A DNA stretch of 64,000 bases, taken from assembly GCA_964016885.1 (NCBI GenBank), contig OZ024742.1:297352001-297416000 (forward strand), in the 5' to 3' direction. The notes under the pieces are model-generated. The model saw only the letters and a program-made list of their open reading frames with translations. It was not told the DNA's origin and did not search any database. The position numbers and the translations under genes are program-made. Positions 1-64,000 of the stretch are shown here, in pieces. This DNA is from Eledone cirrhosa. Lineage: Eukaryota. Positions within the stretch are counted from its first letter, which is position 1; each line of letters starts with the position of its first letter.

Positions 1-947
1 CTTGATCTACTTAGTGCCTCTTTTAAACCTTATCATAAACCTAACGAGAATCTAAGATATATACACAAAGAGTCTTGCCATCCCCCTATAATTTATAAAA
101 ATCTTACTCATAATATTAGCCGTAGGATTTCTACCTTATCTTCGTATCTAGACATTTTTAACGAAGCCGTCCCTTATTATAATAAGGCCCTCAATAACAG
201 CAGCTTTACAGAACATATTAAATATTTACCAACTCCTCCCCACAAAACTAGTCATAATAACAGGAAAAGGAAAATTATTTAGTTTACATCCCGTTCTCTC
301 TAACTGTCAAAACTCATGTAGGAAGGAAATTCCTTGACCTCCTAGACAAACATTTCCCCCCTAATCATAGATATTATAAGATTTTTAATAGAAATGTAGT
401 CAAAATCAGTTACTCTTGCTGTCCATCAATGAAGTCTAAAATCACCAACTCTAATCGTACGAGAGTAAATCCAGGATGCAGTTGCAGGAAGCCGGAAGAA
501 TACCCATTACAGGGCAAATGTAATACTAAAGCCATTGTGTATGAGGCCAAATTGACACCGTTGGCTAACAACCAGCCAGCCAAGAGTGAACGATATGTTG
601 GCATGACTCAGGACAGGTTCAAAACCAGGTTTTATGCACATGTCGCTTCTTTTAAACACTCTGATAAAAGAACAACAACGGTTCTCGCAAATAAAGTGTG
701 GGAATTCAAAGACAAAAACATCCCGTACACTATCGATTGGTCTATTTTGGACCATTCTAGAGAATACCAAAGGGGCACAAAGTATTGCTCTTTGTGCACC
801 ACAGAAAAATTTAGAATTTTCCAAAATTTGAAAGCCAATTCCACTTGCCTTAACTCCAAGACCGAGATCTTCAGATGTTGTCCTCAGCTGAAATCACATC
901 TACTTTGTAACTGGATTGACATTCCTAAGATGACTCAACCACCTTGA
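1..947 (+). mobile_element. Penelope-like retroelement (PLE), 3' part of ORF (RT thumb + linker + GIY-YIG), decayed; Hydra-clade-like
   Basis: Frame 1 from base 1 reads LDLLSASFKPYHKPNENLRYIHKESCHPPIIYKNL...RKRKII*, with TAG at 280-282 where W of the IIWFNPP-type motif is expected. After a frameshift it continues ...VGRKFLDLLDKHFPPNHRYYKIFNRNVVKISYSC into ORF 429-947. These are typical PLE RT C-terminal motifs. Clade assignment is from recalled motifs only. Confidence 0.85.
429..947 (+). pseudogene. GIY-YIG endonuclease domain of the PLE
   Basis: CSC...PLQGKC linker, IVYEA...YVGMT (GIY-YIG), RFKTRFYAH, KVW, CSLCTTEK, CLNSKTE. Confidence 0.85.
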
Positions 948-1185
948 ATTCTTCTTTATTCATTACGCCTTACATCCACTACGATGATTATTATTACTCT
1001 CTGAACTCACATTCTGTACCCATATAACTCTCTGAACTCACATTCTGTACCCATATATTCTGTTTCCCCTCATCTCCTCTTATATTTATATATATTTTTT
1101 CCTTTGTTATTTATTTTTCCTATTCGTCCCTACCTTCTACCCTACCCTTTACACACCCACCTTTTTTATATATAGATCTTTATTT

Positions 1186-1232
1186 TTGTGTGTATGTATG
1201 TATATGTATGTATGTGTTTGTATGTATGTGTA

Positions 1233-1302
<70 letters not shown>
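1186..1302. repeat. (TG/TA)n microsatellite
   Basis: Direct reading. Confidence 0.95.
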
Positions 1303-1306
<4 letters not shown>

Positions 1307-1432
1307 GAAGTTCTATTTAAATTGTTGGGATACAAGCAAATATTTTTATAACTGATATAAAGCACTCAACAAATTATTGGAGTAAAAATACGATATATTA
1401 ACAAATGGAAACTATATTTATAAAACCATATT

Positions 1433-1497
1433 TATTTCATTATACATATTTCAAGGACACCAAGTTAAATTGTGGTGTGCTTTCATCAGATAAAATA
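1433..1497 (-). ncRNA. Type I minimal hammerhead ribozyme (family A, copy 1)
   Basis: Reverse complement of 2568-2632. Confidence 0.8.
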
Positions 1498-2567
1498 TAA
1501 TATAGATCAGTTTTATAAATAAATATTGACATACCCTTCAAGAATGCGACCATTTCTGTTGGAAGCTCCCGGATAGTGGGGTTATTAAATTTATTTAGTC
1601 TATTTGTTATAAAGGACTTCTTACGGTTTATGCTAAACAAACTTATATAATAACAGTCACAACTATATTACAGGTGGATTTATTAGATATAAAATTTATA
1701 AATTTTATAAAATTATAACTTACTATTAAATAATATAAGGTATGTATAATCTTAAATTTCCTTTATTATCTTAATATTTATAACACTTACTTTCCTTCAC
1801 GGTGTTTTGCTATTACATAGAAATGAATTTTCTCCGATTTTTTCTCCGATTTCTCCGAAAAATCTATAAGTTTAGAAAAGTTACTATATCTTAAACATAA
1901 AAAATCTTTTATTGTATATATATATGTGTATGTATATATATATGTATATATATATATATATGTGTGCGTATGTATATATATGAATATATTCTTTTAATAA
2001 TATATAGTTTTAATAATATATAGATTTTAATAATATATAGATCTCAATTTTAATGAATAGATCTCAATAATTTAATTGAAAATTTAATTGATAAACTAAA
2101 CATTTAATCATATTTAAACACTGGTAAAATTCTCCAGTTATTATTATTTATTTATTTTTATTCACACTTATTTACTGTTCTTAACTCATCCAATAAATAT
2201 TTATTTTTTCACTTCATCTTAAAAGTTACGCTAATACAACAACCTATCACTTGGGGCTTTCTCTTTCTCTTTCTTTTTTTCTTTTTTCTTTTTTCTTCTC
2301 TTTCTCTTTCTCTTTCTCTTTCTCTTTCTCTTTCTCTTGTTTTCTTATTTTCCTCTTAGAGTTTGCTCTTTTTCTCTTTATTTTCTTTCCCTTTTTTCTA
2401 TACCCCAACGGTTTATTTTAAATCTACTGTGATTTAAACATATCCGACACTAATTTGCATAATAGACTAAATAAATTTAATAACCCCACTATCCGGGAGC
2501 TTCAAACAGAAATGGTCGCATTCTTGAAGGGTATGTCAATATTTATTTATAAAACTGATCTATATTA

Positions 2568-2632
2568 TATTTTATCTGATGAAAGCACACCACAATTTAA
2601 CTTGGTGTCCTTGAAATATGTATAATGAAATA
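2568..2632 (+). ncRNA. Type I minimal hammerhead ribozyme (family A, copy 2)
   Basis: tattttat-CTGATGA-aagcacacca(caatttaact)tggtgtcctt-GAAA-tatgta-TA-atgaaata. Helix I is 8 bp, helix II pairs at 9/10 positions, and the cleavage triplet is AUA. Confidence 0.8.
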
Positions 2633-2678
2633 AATATGGTTTTATAAATATAGTTTCCATTTGTTAATATATCGTATT

Positions 2679-2933
2679 ATATATATATATATTTATATAT
2701 TAGCGGCGATGAATTAGTTTAGCGAGGTTTTTTATATGAAATCGTGTGTCGAAACAGATATTGTTATACTTTATATATTTATATATTTATATATGTATAT
2801 GTATATATATATATATGTGTGCTTTTGTGAGTGTGTAATTATTGTGCGTAAATATGCACGTTTTTGTTTATATATTTGTATGTATGCATATTTATTTATA
2901 TATATATATATATATGTGTGTGTGTATGTATGA

Positions 2934-2969
<36 letters not shown>

Positions 2970-3046
2970 TTTGTGCGTGTGTGTATTTTTATATTTTGTG
3001 GTGATTTAAATTTATGTATGTGTGTGTGCATATATGTGTATGTATA

Positions 3047-3140
<94 letters not shown>

Positions 3141-3285
3141 ATTATATAAGATATTAAACATTAAATATCATATTTACTCCATGAAAATTTTGTTGAGTGG
3201 TCTACTTCAGTTATAAACATTTATATTTTTATTTATATTTGTCGTATTTCCAACCCTTTGAATACCCCTTCCACCTTTTTAATGT

Positions 3286-3378
<93 letters not shown>
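2679..3378. repeat. Compound (TA)n/(TG)n microsatellite tract
   Basis: Direct reading; source of the spurious IY/CV ORFs. Confidence 0.9.
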
Positions 3379-3381
<3 letters not shown>

Positions 3382-3630
3382 AGCAGTGGTACCCGGCGTT
3401 GCAAAGGATAAGGTATTTTGGAAGGCGGGCCGTCAACAGACCTAATCGAGGATAAACTGCATGCCTGGACAATATGTAAAGAAAATAAACCGAATACTCT
3501 GATGGCTGGATAATCTTTAAGATTTTCCTCGATGAAGCAGAAAAAATACAGGTTTTCACCTAATGCGGGCCCTAGGGGATCAAGAAAATAATATTTTTTG
3601 ATGTGCATAATATGCCTTGAAATTTCGGGA
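3379..3630 (-). mobile_element. Degenerate Helitron-type 3' end
   Basis: accagcagtggtacccggcgttgca resembles the terminus at 5382-5410 (actagcaatgtatcccggcgttgcacggg) and abuts (TA)n; the right boundary is uncertain. Confidence 0.5.
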
Positions 3631-4008
3631 AAATCGGTGTATATGTTTTTATTGTATATATACTTGTGTGTATATATTTCTATATATGTGTATGTGTATG
3701 TATGTGTGTTTGTATTTGTTTATGTATGTGTGTGTATATGTGTATTTATGTGTGTGTGTGTATATATGTGTATATATATATACATATATATATTTTTATT
3801 TTGTGCTTTTGCTTACCCCGTGTGTTTGTTTATTTATTTTTATTTGTGTTTTTTCCTCTTTCATATCGCTTTCAACTTGCTAATTTTTATTTTTTATTTT
3901 TATTTCTTTATTTTTTACTTTTACTATTGATTTCTTGTATATGTATTTTGTCTTTGTATGGTGATGTGACTGCACATGGTCGTTTATTTATTTTTATATA
4001 TTTATTTA

Positions 4009-4049
<41 letters not shown>

Positions 4050-4249
4050 GTATGTATAAATATATGTGTGTGTTTGTGTATTTATGTGTATGTGTATGTA
4101 TATTTATGTGCAAATATATATGTATGTGCGTGTGTGTGTGTTTATATACTTATATATTTATTATCTTTTCCTCTTCTTCATTCAGCCTCTCTTTCATATT
4201 CCTTATAGTTTTGTTTTGAAATCCACATTCAATAAAAACACCAGGGATT

Positions 4250-4309
4250 TTTCATTCTGATGACTGAAAGCAGATTTGTTTGCTTTCAAGAAACCACTGG
4301 TAAATGAAA
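4250..4309 (+). ncRNA. Type I minimal hammerhead ribozyme (family B)
   Basis: tttcatt-CTGATGA-c-tgaaagca(gatttgtt)tgctttca-a-GAAA-ccactgg-TA-aatgaaa. Helix I 7 bp, helix II 8 bp, GUA triplet. It lies in a ~245-bp unique island between microsatellites. Confidence 0.85.
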
Positions 4310-4402
4310 TAATTATCTTATGTTGTTTATTACATAACTATTAAGCTCTGTAACCTACATAGAGCCCTCCTTTTTCCTGGACGTTTCAGACGGAATTACT
4401 TC

Positions 4403-30252: not shown

Positions 30253-31275
30253 CATGTGTGCAAGTATGTATGTATATATATATACTCTTTTATCTGTTCC
30301 AGCCATCTAGATTTTGAGGGTTACAAGTAAGCGTTTTACAGAAAATAATCTTAAATGAAAAACAATAATCAAATGGAACAAAATTGATGGAATGATTATA
30401 AATGAAAAGAATGAGGCTGAAATAGGATATGGTGATAAGGAATTATTTTAAACATTAATGTAAGATAATGGCAATGCGTTTTTAATCTAAGATTTCAAAA
30501 ATAGCAGAGGATGCAGGAAACAGAAATTAATTAAATATAATAAAAATTAGTTGTATTAGATTAAACAAATATTTTTTAGTATTGTTGGATCTATTAAAAT
30601 AAATCTGGAAATATAATTTAAAATGACAAAAATAACTTATTTGAAAAGAAATATGTATGAAAAAGTTTTAGGCAAAGGGAAAAATTGCCCATGTGTTACA
30701 AAAATAGATTTATCAAATGTAGGTAAATTTGAGGCAATGAAGTGGCAAAGACATTAGAACATCTGCTTTCTACACCCTGTCTTCAAATCCTGCTCAGATT
30801 TACTTTATTTTCCATCCATTCGAGGTTGATAAAGTGTCAGTCTAGCACTAGAGGTAATTCTTCTTTTTTTATGACAGTAATGAATGACTTGAGGGAGGTT
30901 ACACTGCTATTTCTATCAAGGAGAAAAACAACATAGCTTCTCTGTCATTGATCTTCGTACTAAATATATCATTATTTTATGTCTTATGTGGAGGCCTTAG
31001 CAAAATGAAAACAAAATTCCCTCTTACCATGATAAACACTTTGTCAGCTCAATGGATGGGGAGGGGGGCTATATGCCATTTTTCGACCTGTTAGAAACAA
31101 TAGACAAATCTCTCTCTCTCCCTGGAATAAATTGATGGGGACAGGCATCATCAGTTTTAAATATCTAAAACGGCACCCCTACAACTCAATCAATAGTTAA
31201 GGGCCTATGGCATGACAGGAGAAATCTAACCAATCTGTTAATTGTTAGTCTTGGAATTATTATATTGTGATACTG

Positions 31276-32992
31276 TGTACCAAATTGCCAAGAAAATCAC
31301 CGGCAGTTCTAGAGCTAACTCAGGCCCGGTGAAAGCGAAAGATGGTACGCTGCTTTCCAAGGGTGAAGAAAAGTTAGTCAGATGGGCTGAACATTTCAAG
31401 GAAGTCCTCAACCGACCGGAGCCACGTGTGCCAGCAGACACTAAGGAACCTACTAGTTTGTTGCCTATCAATACTGATGACATCACCGAGAAAGAAGTCC
31501 GCATGGCCATCAAAACCCTTAAGAATAACAAGTCACCAGGTATGGATGGCATTTATGCTGAAATGCTGAAGTCAGGAGGCGAAAGCATGGTCAAGTGGAT
31601 GGGCCACTTATGTAATCTTGTGTGGAACACGGGTGAAGTCCCAGAAGATTGGAGAAACGGAGCGGTTGTCTGTATCCCCAAGAAGGGCAACCTTGCCGAT
31701 TGTGACAACTGGAGGGGAGTGACACTTCTCTCCATACCAGGGAAGGTCTATTGTGTGATGATCCTGAACCGCATACGTGGCATGATAGACCGGGAACTGC
31801 GAGAACAACAGGCAGGGTTCCGACCAAAACGTTCCTGTGCAGAGCAGATCTTTACGTTACGCCGCATCATTGAGAGGTACAACGAATTCCAGAGGCCCCT
31901 CACCGTCAGCTTCATCAATTTCTCCAAAGCATTCAATAGCATTCATCGGCCGTCACTCTGGAGCATCATGCATGAGTATGGTCTACCCCAGAAAGTCATT
32001 TCGGCAATCAAACAGATTTATGCAAACTCCAAGTGCTGCATACGGACAGAGGATGGTTACAGTGACTGGTTTGAGGTGGTTACTGGTGTGCATCAAGGTT
32101 GCTCGCTCTCTCCAATTCTCTTTGCCATAGCCATTGACTGGGTACTAAGAAGAGCGTCTAAAGACCAGGGTATATCTTGGGTGGGAGAGCAAAAGTTGTC
32201 TGACCTGGACTTTGCGGACGATATTGTTGCACTTGCAGAGAGCACAGCTGACCTGCAAATCATTATGAACAATATCAATGTCGAAGCAGGAAGCTTAGGT
32301 CTCAATATCAGTGCTAAGAAGACCAAAAGCATGTTATCTGGGACACACCCATCACCAACTAGTGTTTCATTGAACAAGGGGAGGTGGAGATAGTGGACAA
32401 CTTCACCTACCTAGGAAGCTCCATTGACAATGGGGGCGCCATGGACAGTGAATTACAATGTAGAATGGGAAAGGCTTCAGCAGCATTTAACCAGCTTGTC
32501 AAGATCTGGAAGAGTAGGAAGTTGACCCTCAAAACAAAGATGAGATTCTACAACAGCAACGTGCAGTCCATACTCTTGTACGGAAGTGAAACATGGCACC
32601 TTAAGACCAGCCAAGAGAAGAAGTTGTACGTATTTGATTCCAGGTGTCTGCGAAAGATCCTGGGGATTAAATGGAGTGACCATGTAACAAACCAGGAAGT
32701 CAGGAACCGCACCAACCAGCAGCTAGTCTCTTCTGCCATCTGCAAGCGACGCCTGGGCTGGTTTGGGCACGCTTTGAGACTTCCCCCGGAGAGACTGGCG
32801 AACCAAGTACTTAAATGGAACCCACAGGGAAGCAGACGGAGAGGGCGACCCAAAATGAACTGGCGCCAGACAGTTGAGAGGGACCTGCGAGCGACAAACA
32901 GACAATGGCGGGACGCTGTGCAACTGGCTGCTGACCGAACGCGGTGGAACACTATGATTGCCTCATGCGTCGCAAGACGCGGGAGCTTCTGA
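31276..32992 (+). pseudogene. RTE reverse transcriptase ORF broken by one frameshift near 32380
   Basis: ORFs 31242-32393 and 32384-32992 join (LNKG/EVEIVDNFTYLGS); catalytic motif mutated to FINFSKAFNS. Confidence 0.9.
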
Positions 32993-47268: not shown

Positions 47269-49476
47269 CATATATTGGTATTTGTGTTTAAAATACGATT
47301 GTACTTACAATATTTAACATTAACTGAATGAGCACACACTCCATGCATGCATAATGTAAAATTTCAGAGTATATATAAATGTATTTCCCAAGCTGAATCC
47401 GTGTAACCATAAAGTGTGTCAAGGTTAGACCTGCAAATTACAATCATAGTTCATCCAACAGGTTAATGCAGTTTCCATTTATCCAATTTTAATCACTACG
47501 TTTGGTGTTGGCAAGAGGCTATATTAAAAATCTCTTGCTCAAAATGCTACACAGTAGGATCAAACAAATGTACTGCTTATCTATGTTTTGGTCAATTTGA
47601 AGCTAAGATAGGAGTAAATAGGTGATATTGAGTACAGATAATATAAATTTTGATATGATGGTGTAATTTGTGGAATGGGTATCTGTTGTAGTGTGGGATT
47701 TTCTGCAGGCGTAGTGTAAAGTAAAAGAAGGGTCATAAAAATCAGATGCTTAGATGTGGAATTCAGGTTGTAAGATCTAAATAATTGTGTATAATAACTG
47801 GCAGAATTGAATATATAGCAGAAACATGAGTCAAGCATTTAAGACTTTTAATGAGAGCAGATCAATTGATCAACTCTATGGATTCCAAACACAATCTAGT
47901 AAGTAACCGAAGGTATAAATGCTAGTTAAGTCTATATAATATATGTAAAGACCATGAAAATAAACAGTAACAGATAACAACACATTACAATAATGGTGTA
48001 TTAGTATAATGCTTAAAAGGAGTTAGAAAATAGCTTTGATCCTTTGGGCACTAGTCCTTCATCAGACAGTAGACACAGAGAGAAAATGGGGTACTTCAAA
48101 GAGAGGAGTAGAAAGAAGATGAATGAAAAAAAAAAGAAAAACACGAAAATGGAGATAAAAGGAGACAGAAAGAACGTTTATAGTTACTTATCAGCCTAGA
48201 GTTAAGTAATTCTCTATTCATTGTATTTTTAGGGTTGTGGTATACTATGTAAAAGACAAATTTTTTATATCATAATGATGCTGATACTCTTTGGGAAAAA
48301 TATCAGAAAGCTATAATACTATGAATAAATTACCATAGGATCATGAAAGAAATTTTCTAAATGGGTTTACAAATTGTGTTCTGACAACCCAGAGACACTT
48401 TCCTCGCCATATATAATTGATAGTCTAAGGCCAGATGCAATTATACACTCCATCACTCAAATATATTATTTGCAGCCAAAATGACATATGAAATAAATCC
48501 AGTTTAGGAAATAATGCAATCAGATATTCCAAATGAAATACATGCAGCTGGGTGAACATAAGACTATATCATAACTGTAGCAGAGGTTATCTACTGCCAA
48601 ATTTAAACTAAGCTACAGAGCCTCTTTCAAAGATCTATCTACATTAAAGAAAGTAATTATTGCCAGTGTGATTTACCAGCTTCAAAGCTTTTTTTATTTG
48701 ATGTTTGGCAACTTGAAACACCTATCTTCAGTTGAACAGTTAACATCAGAAATTGGCTTCTGGGAAGTAATTATTACAATCATCAGCTCATAATTTTGTT
48801 TGTTTATTTTGTATAGTCACCCAAAGAGAATTAATTCTTTATAAATACAATTCCCATGAAATATTTATAAAGGCAGCCTAAAAGAACTTTATCTAAAGAT
48901 AACCTATATAATATAGAGGTTGACTTTGTCTTTCGTCAGTTTATGGTTGATAAAGTACCAGTCTCAGGCAGTGGACTGGTGGAATCAGAGTATGTTTGGC
49001 TATTTGCACTCTGCATTCAAATTATATGTTAACCAAAATTGTTTGAATCAGATCATTTCTAGAATTACAAATTCCTTTGTGATTGTAACAAGGAATTCAC
49101 TGGTTTGATCTGCATAGCTTATACTAAATTATGTTCACAAGAGTCATTAGTAAAATATTTGAGTTTGTTCCTTGACATTTTCCATTTCTTACTTTCTGTA
49201 AGTGTTGAAAACCAGCTTGATTTCTTCTTTCTACTTTATAAGGTTTTCTTCTTTTAATAGATAAGATATAGAGCAACCCTTCCATTACTATATCTCTAAC
49301 AAAAGACAGTCTATAATTTCCAAACCCTTATGAAATTAATCAAAGTTTTGAAATATTTAATAATATATGTATAAATATTTCGTATCTCCAAAGAAATACG
49401 GTTTTAGGAAGCCGTAGCTATGCAAACACTGGGCGGCTAACGCCCTCTGGTGATGTCCAGCAGAAGCAAGGGGGAC

Positions 49477-49522
49477 AACCGTCTATGCATTTCAGGCTTA
49501 ACTGGCCATCGTCAGGACGGTC
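49477..49522 (-). ncRNA. Type I minimal hammerhead ribozyme (family F, copy 1)
   Basis: Minus strand: gaccgtc-CTGACGA-tggc(cagttaa)gcct-GAAA-tgca-TA-gacggtt. Helix I 7 bp, palindromic TGCA helix III. Confidence 0.85.
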
Positions 49523-49969
49523 CCTCCCACCGCTTGCGACTGCTGGACTAGGAGACAGGCGAGAATATATAGTTTTCTCGTCTGTGTAAATGAGGTGATT
49601 AATCTCATTTGCATATGAAGCTGCATAACAACTTATGCAGCTTCATATGCAAATGAGTTAAGCCTGAAATGCATAGACAGTTGTCCCCCTTGCTTCTGCT
49701 AGACATCACCAGAGGGCGTTAGCCCCCCCCCCCCCCCCGGTGTTTGCATATCTACGGCTTCCTAAAACCGTATTTCTTTGGAGATACAAAATATGTTTAC
49801 ATATTGTATTAAGCTATGCTTGAAGCGAAATCCTATTTCTTTTCTATTATAAGTTGAGCCAACTTATGCAGCTTCATATGCAAAAGAGATTAATCACCTC
49901 ATTTACACAGACCAGAAAACTATATATTCTCGCCTGTCTTCTAGTCCAGCAGTCGCAAGCAGTGGGAGG

Positions 49970-50015
49970 GACCATCCTGACGATGGCCAGTTAAGCCTGA
50001 AATGCATAGACGGTT
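49970..50015 (+). ncRNA. Type I minimal hammerhead ribozyme (family F, copy 2)
   Basis: gaccatc-CTGACGA-tggccagttaagcct-GAAA-tgca-TA-gacggtt, with one helix I mismatch. Confidence 0.8.
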
Positions 50016-52089
50016 GTCCCCCTTGCTTCTGCTGGACATCACCAGAAGGCGTTAGCCCCCTCGCCTCCCTCTTGGTGTTTGCATAGCTATGGCTTCCTAA
50101 AACCGTATTTCTTTGGAGATACGAAATAATATAACTAACTTTATCATTATTAAGTTGGTGTTTGAAACAAATTAACAGAAGCTCTTATATAGCATTATGA
50201 TGAAATGGTTTTGGATAAATATAGAGCTATTGTAAAACCAAGAGTGGTTTGGTATCAAACGGTTTAATGATTTCTTAATGTTATCTGCAAGAAGTTAATT
50301 CAAATGTTTTGACCAAGATTCTATGAAAGCTGTTATAAATTAACAAAATTGATTAATTTTGTACAAAAGGAAGACTTAATTCACCTTTAGCAATTTCTCT
50401 CCTTATGAAATAGGAAGTTATTCATGAAAATTAACAAGCTATGCCGGGTTTTGTTGTTTGTTGTGTTGTTTATCAGTTCCATGTTAAATATAGATTTCAG
50501 ATAAGGTATCTTTCAGTTGAACTACAATGTCTTTGAAGAAAATTGATACAGCAATAATATTTAGATTGGAAGATATCCAAAATAGTTATGCTAGAACCTT
50601 TACTCAATTTGATCTTTCCAGTGCAATATGTGAATGTTAACGGTGAGCAGTATTAAGTTTACATGGATTCCTGAGAAATTACAGACCTTATATATGAATT
50701 AAAACAGTGGTGTCACTAAACTACTCAGCTGCTCACACCAAAATGTTGCCATTTACATTAAAATGGTTATACAGACATCAGAATAATACTACTGAATACA
50801 ACAAAAAACTATTTTAATATATTCAGTAGATTGGTTTCTGATTTAGGCACAAAGCCAGTGATTTTGCAGCTCAGAAGATGTAAAAATAGTGGAATCAGTA
50901 TTCTACTTAAAAACAAGGGTTGACATTAGGAAAGGCATCCAGCCATAGAATATTGCTAAAAAGGTATTGTGCAACACATGCAAGCACAGGAATAATGGAT
51001 ATAAAATAATAATGAGGATGATATTGTGTTGGTTTGTTTTCTGCTTGTATATAAATATATTGTACTTATCTAATTATAAATATTGTTAGAACAATATAGT
51101 TCATAGATGACATAAAACTGAATTAGATGGTAATTTATTTATGGTAATTAGATGATAATTTATCTAATCATTTCATTCAAGAAATATTTATATCTTCGTA
51201 GGTCACTTTAAATAAACACAAGTTGGTTCAATACACTTTTTCTTCTTTAGAAAGAAGACATTATGGTTAAGCAATAAATCATTATATGAAATGTAATTAA
51301 TTTGGTTATTTAATTTTTAATTCTTTTTTCTTGATATTTTTTCTTCCCTTTGACCTAAGTTGAAATGTTTCCAGTCTAATGAACAAAATAAGTTCAAGAA
51401 ACTTTGACTTGACAAACCAAACAATTGCTTAATGATGAAGAATTTTCATGGAATGCCCAAATAAGGTTATTTGAGATGTCTTGTTATAAAAGAGGTTTTA
51501 TTTCCTTATCGTTTCATGTCAATGATTATTAAAAAAGAAGAGAATGAGAGGCACTGTTTACTGTAAACAAGTATTATAAAATCTAATAATTAGAACATAT
51601 GTATATTTCTTAGCTTAAAAATATATTTTATTGAAATTTATGAGAAAGTTAGAAATTTCGTCAAATGTTTTTTTGTTCTTTTTTCTATAGAAAAATAGTC
51701 TAAAAGATTTTTGATAATACATAAACAACCATCCGGTTATTAAACCAACCAACTGGAAATTTGTAATAAATTGAAGTGAAAACCAATAGACGTGTGTGTT
51801 TTTATTAGCAGCATGACCCCCAAGTATAAGAATTAATAATTTGCTAGCTACAAAAAGGCTTCAAATAACAGGCTATTGTCATGACATTCTCTTTTAGATT
51901 AAATAACATACAAAGTGATATATTTTCTAATAACCTGAGGTTCAGTACTCTTTACCTTTATAAAAATATGACAGATACTTGTTAATGGTAAAAATATGTT
52001 TTTCATGTCTCACATTGTTCCAGTGGAGATGAGATGCTATAAAAAATCCTACACAAAACAAATCACAAAAGAGGAGGTCCACAAAATAA

Positions 52090-52620: not shown

Positions 52621-52951
52621 ACCCATTCTTTAGCAAAACAAATAGTGTTAAAAAGCTGATTACTGTTGTTAAAACTAACAACAGTAATCAGCATTTAAGA
52701 CATACCTTTAAGCCATGATACTTTTAGTTCTGACAAACTATAATAGTCCCAACAAGAAGAAAAAAATTGCTTTATTTCTTTTTAATGGGATAAAGAATTT
52801 GACATAAAAATAGCAGTTACTCAAAGCTAATATAATTATGAAAAGCAAATTTCTTTCACAAGACCAAAGACTATATCAAAAGACACTTTCCTATGGAGCT
52901 ATGCAATGTGATTGACTCTGAAACCATGTTTTCACAAAGCATATTGTTAAG

Positions 52952-53082
52952 CCACATAGGCATATAAGTATGTTTCATTGCTTAAAGCTATATTAATGTT
53001 CGAAAACTATTAAGTCCACATAGGCATATAAGTATGTTTCATTGCTTAAAGCTATATTAATGTTCGAAAACTATTAAGTCCA
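52952..53082. repeat. Perfect 64-bp tandem duplication
   Basis: ccacataggcatataagtatg...gaaaactattaagt at 52952 and 53016. Confidence 0.95.
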
Positions 53083-59347: not shown

Positions 59348-60542
59348 CATCATCATCATCACCGTTTTACGTCCGTTCTTCCACGCTAGCATGGATTAGA
59401 TGGGTTGTCCTGTTGTGTGCAGTGTCTGGTCGGTTGACCATGCCTTGCTCATACAGGAACTGATCTGGTTTGATTTCTACAGCTGGATGCCCTTCCTAAC
59501 ACCAACCTCATTTACAGTGAGTGCTGGGTGCTTTTTCGTGGCGCCTACACGTCCACTTTACAGTGTGGGCTGGGTGCTTTTTTGCCATGGCACCTCCACG
59601 ACCACCTTGCGGTGGGGGGAGTGGGGGCATATTGTTTATATGCTTCAGCATGTACCCATGGGAGGTCGGGTACCCTGTATTACTGCGTGACGCCAGAAGT
59701 CACGGTCGTGTGTCATTGTCTTTGAGAGGTGTAATTGGGTAAGGTCGGCTTTTATCACCTCATCCCAGGTCATCTTGGGTCTCCCCACTCCGCGGTTTCC
59801 ATCAACTTCTAGTGCTCTGCACCTTTTTATGCAGCTGTCATCCTTCATACGCATCACATGTCCATACCAGCGCAACCGCCTCTCCTGCACACAGCATTTG
59901 ATTCCTCTTATGCTCAGTCTCTCTCTCAATTTATTTATGCTTTGTCGTTCACGTATATTACTGTTACACATCCATCGGAGCATGCAGGCTTCGTTTCTCT
60001 CTAATCTACGTAAGTCTTCCACCTTCAGCGCCCAGGTCTCACTACCATGCAACAGCGATGTTTGGATACACGCATCATACAGTCTGCCTTTCATTCAGAG
60101 GGAGAAGCCTTTTGCAGCTAGCAGTGGTAGTAGTTCCCTAAACTTCTTCCATCCCGTTCTTACCCTAGTTATTGTACTTTCTGAACACCCACCTCTGTTG
60201 CTAATTCGGTCACCTAGGTAGCAGAAGCTGTCTACTGTTTCTACAGGACCCTCCCAGAGATTGGTGGTACTTGTTTCCTGTGGCTGTCTGCTGCTTGCTG
60301 TTTCAGCACAGCTGCTGCATGTGAATCCTACATTCTTAATTAAGCTTCCTGAGATCCCGCTACATCTCTTGTGTACCCATTGTTTGCATTTGGGGCAGAG
60401 AATGGAGTTCCTACCTACACCTTTCCTACATACTGAGCAAGGCCATTTCCCTGAGGGGATCTGGGTTCTGTTTTCTCGTCTACTTACAAGGACCTTAGTC
60501 TTTGTCATGTTGACTTTGAGACACTTTCTCTCTAGTCCCTGC
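59348..60542 (-). mobile_element. 5'-truncated RTE LINE copy (PHD-finger subfamily)
   Basis: ORFs 60095-60508 and 59645-60094 are in frame and separated by one stop. Homologous to the C-terminal part of 61773-63890. (gat)n tail; 5' end abuts (TA)n. Confidence 0.9.
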
Positions 60543-61000
<458 letters not shown>

Positions 61001-61377
61001 GTATTAATTGTACTACTTATGGTTATGAAAATACAAAAACCTTTTGCAGTTATATGTATTTTTTATACAAACCCTAAATAGTGGTAGGCAGTAATGTATT
61101 ACTACCTTATTACCAGTAAGTTAAGTAGCTCAATGTAAAAACATCAGATGATTTACAGAGCAGTTATATGAAATATAAGAATCAAAGAACTGTTCAAAAC
61201 ATTTCATTTCTCACTCTTAGTACGGCACTTACTTAAATGTAAGTATGTATGTATACGTACATACATACATATATATATATATATTTATATATATATATAT
61301 TTATATATATATACACTCCTATATATATATCCATATATATATATATATATATATTTATACATATATATATTTATATA

Positions 61378-64000
61378 TCATCATCATCATCATCAACGTT
61401 TAACGTCCGTGTTCCACGCTTGCATGGGTTTGGACGGGGGTAGTCCCGCTTGAGGCAAGAGTGATTGTCTTGCTCGCATAGGACTGTCTGGCAGGTTTTC
61501 TACAGTTGGATGCCCTTCCTAACACCAACCACATTTACAGTGTGGGACTGGGAGGTTTTTACCGTGTTGCCTACACGGCCACATTACAGCGTGGACTGTG
61601 TGTTTTTTTGTCATGACACCTACACGATCTCATTTGTTTCGGCCTGGATGGCGCGGCACCAGCATAACTTTACATAGAACGGGGTGGTATGGATGGGGTG
61701 GGGGTGGTGGTGGTGGGACGGGGTGTATTTTGTTAGAGATGCCTACTGGCTGGAGTAGGTTTTACTATATATTTAGGTAAGGCGGGTCTTCTCTGTTACT
61801 GAGTACCGCCAAAGGTCTTGGTCCAGTGACATTGTCTTGGAGAGGTGTAAGTGTGTGATGTCGGAGTTTATCAGCTCGTCCCAGGTTTTTCTAGGTCTGC
61901 CTATTCCGTGACTACCGTCTATCTTTATTGCCCTGCACTTTGTTATACAGCTATCGACTTTCATGCGCATCACGTGTCCATACCAACGTAGCCTTCTCTC
62001 GAGTAAACAACATCTGATCCCTCTTATCTCTAATTTTTTCCTTAGTTCGTTTATGCTTTGCCGTTCACGTATATTACTGTTACACATCCAGCGGAGCATG
62101 CAAGCTTCATTCCTCTCTAGTCTGCGTATATCCTCTGCACACAATGCCCAGGTCTCACTGCCATGCAGCATTGCTGTTCGTATGCAGGCATCGTACAACC
62201 TGCCTTTCATTTTTAGGGAGAACCCTTTAGCAGCTAATAGTGGTATAAGCTCTCTGAACTTTTTCCAACCAGTTCTGACTCTAGCTACAGTACTTTCAGA
62301 GCACCCTCCCCCACTGCTGATTTTATCGCCCAGGTAACGGAAGCTGTCCACTATTTCTATAGAACCCTCTGCGCAATTGAAAGAGCTAGTATTTTGTGGG
62401 CACTTGCTGCTACTTATTGCACCAGAACACCGGCCACATGTAAAATCTATGTTTTTAGTTAGCTTACCTTTGATCCCACTACATCTTTTATGCACCCATA
62501 CTTTGCATTTAGGACATAAAATGGAGTTTCTACCTACGCCTTTCCTACACACCGAGCACGACCATTTCCCAGAAGGGATCGCCGCCTTGTTTTCTTTCCT
62601 ACAAACTAGAACTTTGGTCTTAGCCAGGTTAATTTTAAGTCCTTTTGACTCTAGGCCGTGCTTCCATGTTTGGAATTTCTTCTCTAGCTCGGCCATTGAT
62701 TCCGCTATGAGTGTCAGGTCGTCTGCGTATAGGAGTTCCCATGGGCAGCCTGTCTTGAACTTCTCTGTTATAGCCTGAAGGGCAATAATAAATAGTAGGG
62801 GGCTGAGAACAGAGCCCTGATGGACGCCAACTTTTACGCTAAACTCTTCACTATATTCGTTGTTAATTCTAACCTTGCTGACTGTTTCTTTATACATGGC
62901 TTGTATAGCCCTCACAAGCCATTCGTCAACGCCTAGTTTTCTAAGAGCCCACCAGATAATGGAGCGGGGGACTCTGTCGAAGGCTTTCTCCAAGTCGACA
63001 AAAGCTAAGTAGAGGGGTTTACCTTTAGCTAGGTACTTCTCCTGTAGTTGTCGTACTATGAAAAGAGCGTCTGTGGTACTTTTGCCTGACACAAACCCGA
63101 ACTGCATTTCATCTAGGTCAATTCTCTCTCTGATTAGTTGCGCTATTACTTTTTCCGTGACCTTCATGACCTGGTCGATTAATTTAATGCCTCTATAGTT
63201 ACTCCTATCTAGGGCGTCTCCTTTACCCTTATAACAGTTAACGATGATGCTGCTATGCCAGTCCTTCGGAACAACCCCATTCTGTACGACTTGGTTAACT
63301 ATGCGGGTGACCATGGTGTGTCCCACCGTGCCAGATGCCTTCAGCATCTCAGCAACTATTTCCGAAGGCCCAGCCGCCTTACCCGTCTTCATATCCTTGA
63401 TTGCCTTACTTATTATACTCCCCTCGACTAACACTGCTGGTCCCTCTATTGGGTCGATATGGGGGAGACTGTCTTTCTCCCATTTATTCTCCTCATTTAG
63501 TAGCCTTTCATAGTGACACTTCCAAGCTACCTTCTTATCAGCGTCGGTGATGGCAAGTGTGCCATCGTCGTTTAGTACACACTTCTCCCCGACAATATCA
63601 CGGTTTTCCTTGACGCATTGCCTAGCAATCCTGAACACCTCACGTTTTTGGTCATCGCGTTGTAGAACATGCTTGAACTTTCTTTCCTCAGCTTCCCTTC
63701 TTGCTAAGTACACTTGTCTCCTAGCTTCCCTCCTGGCCACTTGATAGTCTTCTCTACTTCCCCCATCCCGCCATACTTTCCAAGCCTGCTTTTTGGCCTT
63801 AATTGACCCCTCCACCTTACTGTTCCACCACCATGTTACTCTCCTCCTGCCTACAGGCCTGCTCCAGCCACAGACTTCGTCTGTCGCCAACAGCAGGTTT
63901 GCTTTCAGAAATTCCCACTCTCCCTCTATATTGTCCGACTCTAAATGTTCTTCCTTACTGTCGAAAGCATCAAGTAATATGCTTTGAAATTTATTCCTGG
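61378..64000 (-). mobile_element. RTE-clade LINE, young, extends past the window end
   Basis: Uninterrupted ORF, ~400-nt 3'UTR and (gat)n tail at 61378-61394. Confidence 0.95.
61773..64000 (-). CDS. RTE ORF (partial): RT with YADD, PHD-like zinc finger and C-terminal domain
   Basis: The frame stays open upstream of 63890 to the window edge (RNKFQSILL...EWEFLKANLL). Motifs GKAAGPS, NYRGIKL, QFGFV, FVDLEKAFDRV, GVHQGSVLSP, LLYADDL, WYGHVMR, GRPRKTW. Confidence 0.93.
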   Translation of the reverse strand, partial: RNKFQSILLDAFDSKEEHLESDNIEGEWEFLKANLLLATDEVCGWSRPVGRRRVTWWWNSKVEGSIKAKKQAWKVWRDGGSREDYQVARREARRQVYLARREAEERKFKHVLQRDDQKREVFRIARQCVKENRDIVGEKCVLNDDGTLAITDADKKVAWKCHYERLLNEENKWEKDSLPHIDPIEGPAVLVEGSIISKAIKDMKTGKAAGPSEIVAEMLKASGTVGHTMVTRIVNQVVQNGVVPKDWHSSIIVNCYKGKGDALDRSNYRGIKLIDQVMKVTEKVIAQLIRERIDLDEMQFGFVSGKSTTDALFIVRQLQEKYLAKGKPLYLAFVDLEKAFDRVPRSIIWWALRKLGVDEWLVRAIQAMYKETVSKVRINNEYSEEFSVKVGVHQGSVLSPLLFIIALQAITEKFKTGCPWELLYADDLTLIAESMAELEKKFQTWKHGLESKGLKINLAKTKVLVCRKENKAAIPSGKWSCSVCRKGVGRNSILCPKCKVWVHKRCSGIKGKLTKNIDFTCGRCSGAISSSKCPQNTSSFNCAEGSIEIVDSFRYLGDKISSGGGCSESTVARVRTGWKKFRELIPLLAAKGFSLKMKGRLYDACIRTAMLHGSETWALCAEDIRRLERNEACMLRWMCNSNIRERQSINELRKKLEIRGIRCCLLERRLRWYGHVMRMKVDSCITKCRAIKIDGSHGIGRPRKTWDELINSDITHLHLSKTMSLDQDLWRYSVTEKTRLT

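Follow-up and report, generated by a model that had tools for sequence, protein, structure and literature searches.

Animal retrozymes have been described as tandem units of 170–400 nt that are expressed as circles, with Penelope-like elements (PLEs) proposed as their helpers (PMC7229834), and they have been tied to the pseudo-long terminal repeats (pLTRs) of PLEs as likely non-autonomous derivatives of these elements (Li, Clavereau and Pollet 2026, bioRxiv 10.64898/2026.07.22.740005). We have analysed a stretch of 64,000 nt from Eledone cirrhosa (assembly GCA_964016885.1, contig OZ024742.1, positions 297,352,001 to 297,416,000, forward strand), hereafter called the window, in which a hammerhead-bearing repeat is inserted between 49359–49367 and 50125–50133 (positions of the window). 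The repeat is very probably a retrozyme-type element mobilised by PLE machinery. An earlier note on this DNA had proposed a retrozyme-type unit with a PLE-style inversion, and the hammerhead, the 333-nt tandem and the inverted layout described below bear this out.

A partial tandem, an inverted and 5'-truncated copy and, optionally, a tail make up the PLE copies described so far (PMC8557442), which also show 8–10-bp target duplications, palindromes at their junctions and microhomology deletions as a route of decay (PMC3846280). Purified PLE protein, a predicted dimer, cuts and extends both target strands and prefers AT-rich DNA; it starts inside the RNA, at two adjacent sites approx. 85–92 nt past the hammerhead cut, does not need the cleavage and has uncut RNA as its main substrate in vitro (PMC11167929). 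Our literature search, with most subscription journals outside it, returned no description of inverted retrozyme insertions and none of octopus hammerheads.

Structure of the insertion

The insertion between the two target copies is 757 bp long and consists of one inverted copy and approx. 1.8 head-to-tail copies (counted before a deletion) of a 333-nt unit, set in an older mobile element, a miniature inverted-repeat transposable element (MITE). The direct copies are spaced by 333 nt, and so are the two AUA triplets at 49675 and 50008, as the earlier note had it. The unit has 44% GC and a longest stop-free frame of 60 codons; no open reading frame (ORF) of at least 120 codons in the list for the window overlaps the locus, which thus lacks the reverse transcriptase (RT) and GIY-YIG ORF of an autonomous PLE. 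The features are as follows.

49274–49367, plus strand: MITE-like host repeat, left half (outer end approximate; aligns with copies at approx. 16.6–16.8 kb and 39.7–39.8 kb)
49359–49367, plus strand: left copy of the 9-bp target-site duplication (its 3 final bases are shared with the element end)
49365–49628, minus strand: copy A, inverted and 5'-truncated (unit positions 49864 to 49804+333; deletion absent)
49478–49521, minus strand: complete type I hammerhead of copy A (6 bp in helix I, 3 bp and a U.U in helix II, a single pair in helix III closed by a palindromic UGCA loop; cut predicted between 49484 and 49483)
49604–49657, no strand: head-to-head junction, perfect 25-bp palindrome (arms 49604–49628 and 49633–49657, 4-nt centre 49629–49632)
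49656–49658, plus strand: junction of the 102-nt deletion (unit positions 49889–49990 gone; 2-nt exact microhomology)
49658–49859, plus strand: copy B (3' half of a ribozyme with triplet 49675, its catalytic 5' half missing, followed by the downstream arm and the linker that leads to the following unit)
49769–49788, plus strand: 8-bp hairpin lying just inside both insertion ends (also 50104–50123, plus strand, and 49381–49400, minus strand)
49849–49867, plus strand: the unit's natural 8-bp hairpin (inverted and direct arms meet in its 3' arm)
49860–50128, plus strand: copy C, second direct unit (stops 120 nt past its own predicted cut site)
49971–50014, plus strand: complete type I hammerhead of copy C (one A.C mismatch in helix I, a CpG-type change; predicted cut after 50008)
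50125–50133, plus strand: right copy of the target-site duplication (its 4 initial bases are shared with the element end)
50134–50267, plus strand: MITE-like host repeat, right half (outer end approximate)

The perfect 25-bp hairpin with its 4-nt loop, noted previously, has a fold z score of −10.5 and is built on the only 8-bp stem with a loop of 3–6 nt in the unit 49676–50008. Only 29 nt of direct unit (49629–49657) lie between inverted copy A and the deletion, which joins unit positions 49888 and 49991 at a common AG. A skip of about 100 nt at ag(ttaa) had been claimed; the skip (102 nt) and the AG stand, but the TTAA match that follows is imperfect. The left boundary, formerly placed at 49376, has to be moved outwards, as the inverted copy reaches approx. 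49365, and the 9-bp target duplication is an addition to the anatomy first described. Both outer ends lie 118–129 nt past the cut site and just 3' of the small hairpin at 49769–49788 (and its counterparts at 50104–50123 and 49381–49400), which is possibly a recognition signal.

That the array interrupts a MITE is confirmed by the flanks, which, when joined with one copy of the 9-mer, align without a gap at the junction with two other MITE copies in the window. Contigs of short-read runs (runs X1 and X3, and another, X4) were aligned to 1301 bases around the locus, MITE contigs included. To the left of 50127, hundreds of MITE contigs continue in sequence that resembles the left flank, and a depth peak (49276–49319) and a joint (49308 to 50127) both fall at the MITE left half. 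One contig identical to the window spans the left boundary (49100–49392, under a 31-base bridging rule); among the contigs listed none bridges the fold-back or the deletion, and both junctions are known from the window alone.

Two other identities were considered for the locus and rejected. Both of the ends that mirror each other are 3' ends of one and the same tandem unit and come with a 9-bp duplication, which does not suit a MITE with terminal inverted repeats of its own; the same nature of the ends speaks against a microRNA, for which Rfam matches at lax E-values merely reflect the perfect hairpin. A tRNA scan found no tRNA.

The hammerhead motif

Complete hammerhead cores occur only at 49977 (plus strand) and 49515 (minus strand), and the pattern has these 2 occurrences in 64 kb against 0 in 100 shuffles. 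Rfam gave no hammerhead match, either at the gathering score or at E-values up to 10, and the call therefore rests on motif and helices. By these, the locus fits the published canonical metazoan type I form, with helix I of 6 bp, helix II of 4 bp, a helix III of 1–2 bp and a palindromic loop, which requires a dimer for cutting (PMC4209133). Helix II has a U.U at its base, a variant known from nature (PMC7229834), and the A that would pair there is carried by most of the depth in run X1 (9115 of 11239 at 49984 and 52951 of 59605 at 49508). In the minimum-energy structure helices I and II form in copy A, but not in copy C.

Two predicted cleavage sites had been claimed earlier, at 49675 and 50008. 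The latter belongs to a complete ribozyme, but the former is a half-ribozyme, as the 5' strand of helix I, the CUGANGA motif and the 5' strand of helix II of copy B were all lost to the deletion. The locus would therefore be cut at most once per strand and should be unable to release a monomer.

Comparison with described retrozymes and PLEs

The locus shares with the metazoan non-LTR (non-long-terminal-repeat) retrozymes (Cervera and de la Pena 2020, PMC7229834) a non-coding tandem unit of approx. 330 nt (350–390 bp in mussel, 330/350 bp in axolotl; the range of the class is 150–450 bp, head to tail), a GC content below 50%, a canonical type I hammerhead, a high copy number and a target duplication of more than 4 bp, here 9 bp. 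The resemblance extends to details: a 1-bp helix III with a palindromic tetraloop is found in axolotl HHR_Amex1, and a U.U at the base of helix II in HHR_Amex2 (PMC7229834). In contrast to these retrozymes, the unit has a sequence of its own, has only one complete ribozyme on the direct strand and is known here from DNA alone; it also has an inverted copy, whereas the word 'inverted' does not appear in the main text of PMC7229834.

With the insertions of endonuclease-containing (EN+) PLEs (Arkhipova et al. 2013, PMC3846280; Craig et al. 2021, PMC8557442; Frangieh et al. 2024, PMC11167929) the locus has in common the partial tandem, the inverted 5'-truncated copy, the head-to-head palindrome, a duplication within 8–10 bp, the AT-rich target, ends approx. 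100 nt past the hammerhead, which are unequal, and a microhomology deletion. It differs from them in the lack of an RT or GIY-YIG ORF and in the offset between its ends, approx. 11 nt instead of a 30–40-bp tail. Non-autonomous head-to-tail elements are also described by Craig et al. 2021 (PMC8557442). The dependence of retrozymes on PLE machinery is what the account of Li et al. 2026 predicts; their evidence is co-occurrence and pLTR homology, whereas here it is insertion anatomy. An 'active' copy in their sense has two consecutive complete ribozymes, which this locus does not have, as B is without its 5' half; this holds for the locus only. All this points to what is likely an ordinary, species-level non-LTR retrozyme in a broken copy with textbook marks of PLE insertion.

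The family elsewhere in the genome

In two runs of one sample 7299 and 7266 contigs were aligned, and the family is present in two further samples as well. In X1, 1145 contigs had at least 99% identity, 1976 had 95–99%, 2481 had 90–95% and 1697 were below 90%. Summed depth was approx. 5,000–146,000 over the element against 7–12 on the unique flanks; this is not a copy number and gives an order of magnitude only, which suggests that the family probably counts thousands of copies. Contigs of other copies cover 49363–49527, 49401–49628, 49687–49835, 49789–49897 and 49818–49960.

Inversion is a habit of the family: 6 of the 15 joints listed (99 in total) run from inverted to direct sequence, and three head-to-head joints whose short inserts are known were recovered from X1 as well as X3, at a depth of 7–17 that corresponds to a single copy, and a fourth from X3. 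Their unpaired centres measure 54–140 nt, against 4 nt at this locus. The joints 49609–49834, 49403–49921 and 49543–49984 were left out of the inversion count, their intervening sequence being undefined, and the clustering of junction positions was left uninterpreted, as placement among three copies biases it. A joint from 49879 to 49658 was rejected as support for the deletion, since a contig from this locus would align without a joint; it represents another copy, deleted or merely diverged.

A frequent end of the family lies at 49847, 172 nt past the cut site and 43–54 nt further than the ends at this locus; there 33 contigs of X3 leave the unit for heterogeneous AT-rich sequence. This end may reflect a second start site of the RT together with a bias for (AT)n targets. 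In run X4, a contig of 692 nt (depth 35) matches only 166 nt around the ribozyme, with 21 differences, and then continues in unlike sequence; it possibly belongs to a related family or to an autonomous partner. Metagenome scans gave 0 matches to the ribozyme pattern, and a 20-mer match there (24 bases, in a contig of 58% GC without hammerhead) was taken as chance.

Divergence of the copies

The earlier note had called the copies nearly identical and the event recent on that account. Aligned bases differ at 10 of 253 positions between A and C, 6 of 128 between A and B and 11 of 138 between B and C, and the poly-C tracts are unlike as well; differences of 4–8% do not imply a recent event. The changes are unevenly spread. 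Outside the poly-C tract, a three-way comparison together with majority letters gave 1 private change for A, 6 for B and 6 for C, five of them of CpG type; B and C differ from one another at 6 positions there, whereas in those columns no change is private to A. Copy A thus has a single private change in approx. 250 bases, the 9-bp duplication is perfect, and the majority letters of the contigs at 49795 and 49797 are those of copy A. The asymmetry is 0:6 for A against B (p 0.03) and 1:6 for A against C (p 0.125), with a pooled p of 0.014.

Unequal B and C beside an almost unchanged A tend to speak against one circle as the only template and for two RNA molecules: the direct part would have been templated by an old, diverged tandem transcript, and A by another molecule. 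If A had been copied from the first direct unit by a fold-back, or if B and C had been identical at birth on a circle, equal later decay would be needed in both cases. With two templates the insertion may be young, with a fold-back or a circle it would be old.

Origin of the insertion

Unit length, the anatomy of the predicted ribozyme, the inverted-plus-tandem layout, the duplication and the high copy number are direct observations, from which we infer the mechanism. As a whole, we consider it probable that a non-coding 333-nt canonical type I hammerhead repeat, a non-LTR retrozyme, was inserted in trans by a PLE protein. The PLE endonuclease would have made two cuts in an AT-rich target, one per strand and 9 nt from each other, and reverse transcription of retrozyme RNA would have started from both 3' ends, at adjacent internal positions 118–129 nt past the hammerhead cut. 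The right complementary DNA (cDNA) would have copied approx. 1.8 units of a linear multimeric transcript and the left one 0.8 unit, probably from a different RNA molecule, before the unit's natural 8-bp hairpin served as the site of their head-to-head joining. Microhomology would have given rise to the 102-nt deletion before, during or after the insertion, with loss of monomer excision. We give two-strand priming an even chance of being the source of the inversion; that the inverted arm of PLEs is written by a second RT on a second RNA, primed on the other target strand, is a tentative and rather doubtful proposal. RT template switching, put forward earlier, may account for the deletion, but the inverted arm holds the deleted 102 nt.

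A number of points weigh against this explanation. The analysis found no autonomous partner, and the other stretch of the window with hammerheads (900–4400) is not similar to the unit. The end offset (8–15 nt) is below that of a PLE tail. A 9-base match between such AT-rich zones arose in 80 of 2000 shuffles, so that a duplication alone is weak (4%), and the call is based also on the gap-free one-copy MITE alignment and the MITE contigs continuing leftwards from 50127. The 333-nt cycle is closed, with no ORF in it, by contigs of other copies that overlap, but these do not demonstrate full dimers at single loci. The circular folds of the two natural units show moderate self-pairing (z −2.1 and −3.7), which was exceeded in 1 of 24 composition-matched and 5 of 20 unfiltered control windows, and over 49365–49628 and 49794–50128 the strand opposite the ribozyme folds harder (z −5.4 to −7.6 against −3.7 to −4.3), partly as a G.U effect. 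The asymmetry test is post hoc and small, and was polarised partly with the variant-table rows listed. Lastly, the near-perfect palindrome on the natural hairpin suits a fold-back, and in PMC3846280 such central palindromes of PLEs are read as self-priming and not as two-strand priming.

With the same element and the same PLE machinery, the inverted arm could in fact stem from a cDNA or an antisense template that snapped back at the 8-bp hairpin (49849–49867) and copied itself, in which case the deletion, absent from the inverted arm, would postdate the insertion. We regard this as possible, if on the unlikely side. The palindrome would also suit two annealing cDNA ends, and the identity of the arms over 25 bp, which favours a fold-back, is expected with a probability of 0.2–0.5 at the observed divergence. 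A and B should have started identical, but all 6 differences outside the poly-C tract are on B; the junction is short by 7 nt relative to a clean snap-back product, and the wide unpaired centres of the other family joints do not fit it either. A further, less likely alternative is that the RT produced the direct part by circling a 333-nt RNA circle, as the earlier note had suggested. Coral, mussel and axolotl retrozymes are documented to form circles, which have been put forward as templates (PMC7229834), and a direct part of 1.8 units, longer than the unit itself, ends away from the ribozyme site and the closed cycle in other copies would all agree with one. Units copied from a circle start identical, though, whereas B and C differ as given above and A is almost unchanged, so that we find no support for it; a linear multimer gives the same layout, and uncut RNA was the main substrate of the PLE protein in vitro (PMC11167929).

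It is quite improbable that the unit is nothing but the pLTR of an ORF-bearing PLE, with the locus as a doubly truncated copy. In its favour, every structural mark is one of PLEs, pLTRs and retrozymes are alike (bioRxiv 10.64898/2026.07.22.740005), and the X4 contig that turns to unlike sequence beyond 166 nt around the ribozyme would fit; but at this locus, as in contigs of other copies, the 3' side of the unit runs straight into the next 5' side and no ORF comes between, the hammerhead is of the canonical and not of the minimal PLE type, and the only element-internal loose end among those listed, that at 49847, is AT-rich and heterogeneous. An artefact of assembly or a read fold-back would agree with the lack of a listed contig across palindrome or deletion, but is very improbable, because the arms differ by 4% and the two flanks belong to one and the same MITE, split in half, and carry a duplication; the left boundary is moreover crossed by an identical contig.

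Other elements in the window

The window is AT-rich eukaryotic DNA with many microsatellites and dispersed repeats, of which the SINE- and MITE-like ones are reminiscent of octopus. At 1–947 (plus strand) lies the 3' part of an ORF, of which the frame 261–947 resembles the GIY-YIG endonuclease ends of PLEs (Atlas feature score 0.96–0.97; GIY-YIG in 23% of one cluster). Its look-alikes are eukaryotic and commonest in Mollusca, on very few records, and Pfam gave no match for this ORF. An inverted pair of 218 nt, 1387–1604 (minus strand) and 2461–2678 (plus strand), is 99.5% identical, 857 nt apart and head to head, with hammerhead-like cores at 1489 (minus) and 2576 (plus) that belong to a second family; it looks like a young insertion of PLE type. 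A third hammerhead-like motif (CUGAUGA ... GAAA) at 4257 (plus strand) is unrelated in sequence to the 333-nt unit. From the GIY-YIG-type ORF end and the unrelated inverted pair it follows that PLE-type elements exist in this genome.

Further features are a non-LTR RT remnant in two frames at 31242–32992 (plus strand; RVT_1, E 3e-32, and DUF6451), fragments of another non-LTR element at 59645–62778 with a PHD finger at 60095–60541 (minus strand), repeated near 61900–62800, a perfect 64-nt tandem duplication at 52947–53082 and a 21-bp hairpin with a 4-nt loop at 52651–52696.

Implications

The locus is a broken copy and probably has no function. What it offers is anatomical support for the published idea, still open as to mechanism, that animal retrozymes are mobilised by PLE proteins. 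A testable hint on how PLE inversions are formed, and one beyond the literature examined, comes from the arms, which have diverged unequally. The high-copy family, in which arms are distinguishable by subfamily variants, would form a natural data set for the two-template proposal and, if this is true, for insertion of retrozymes from linear multimers and not from circles.

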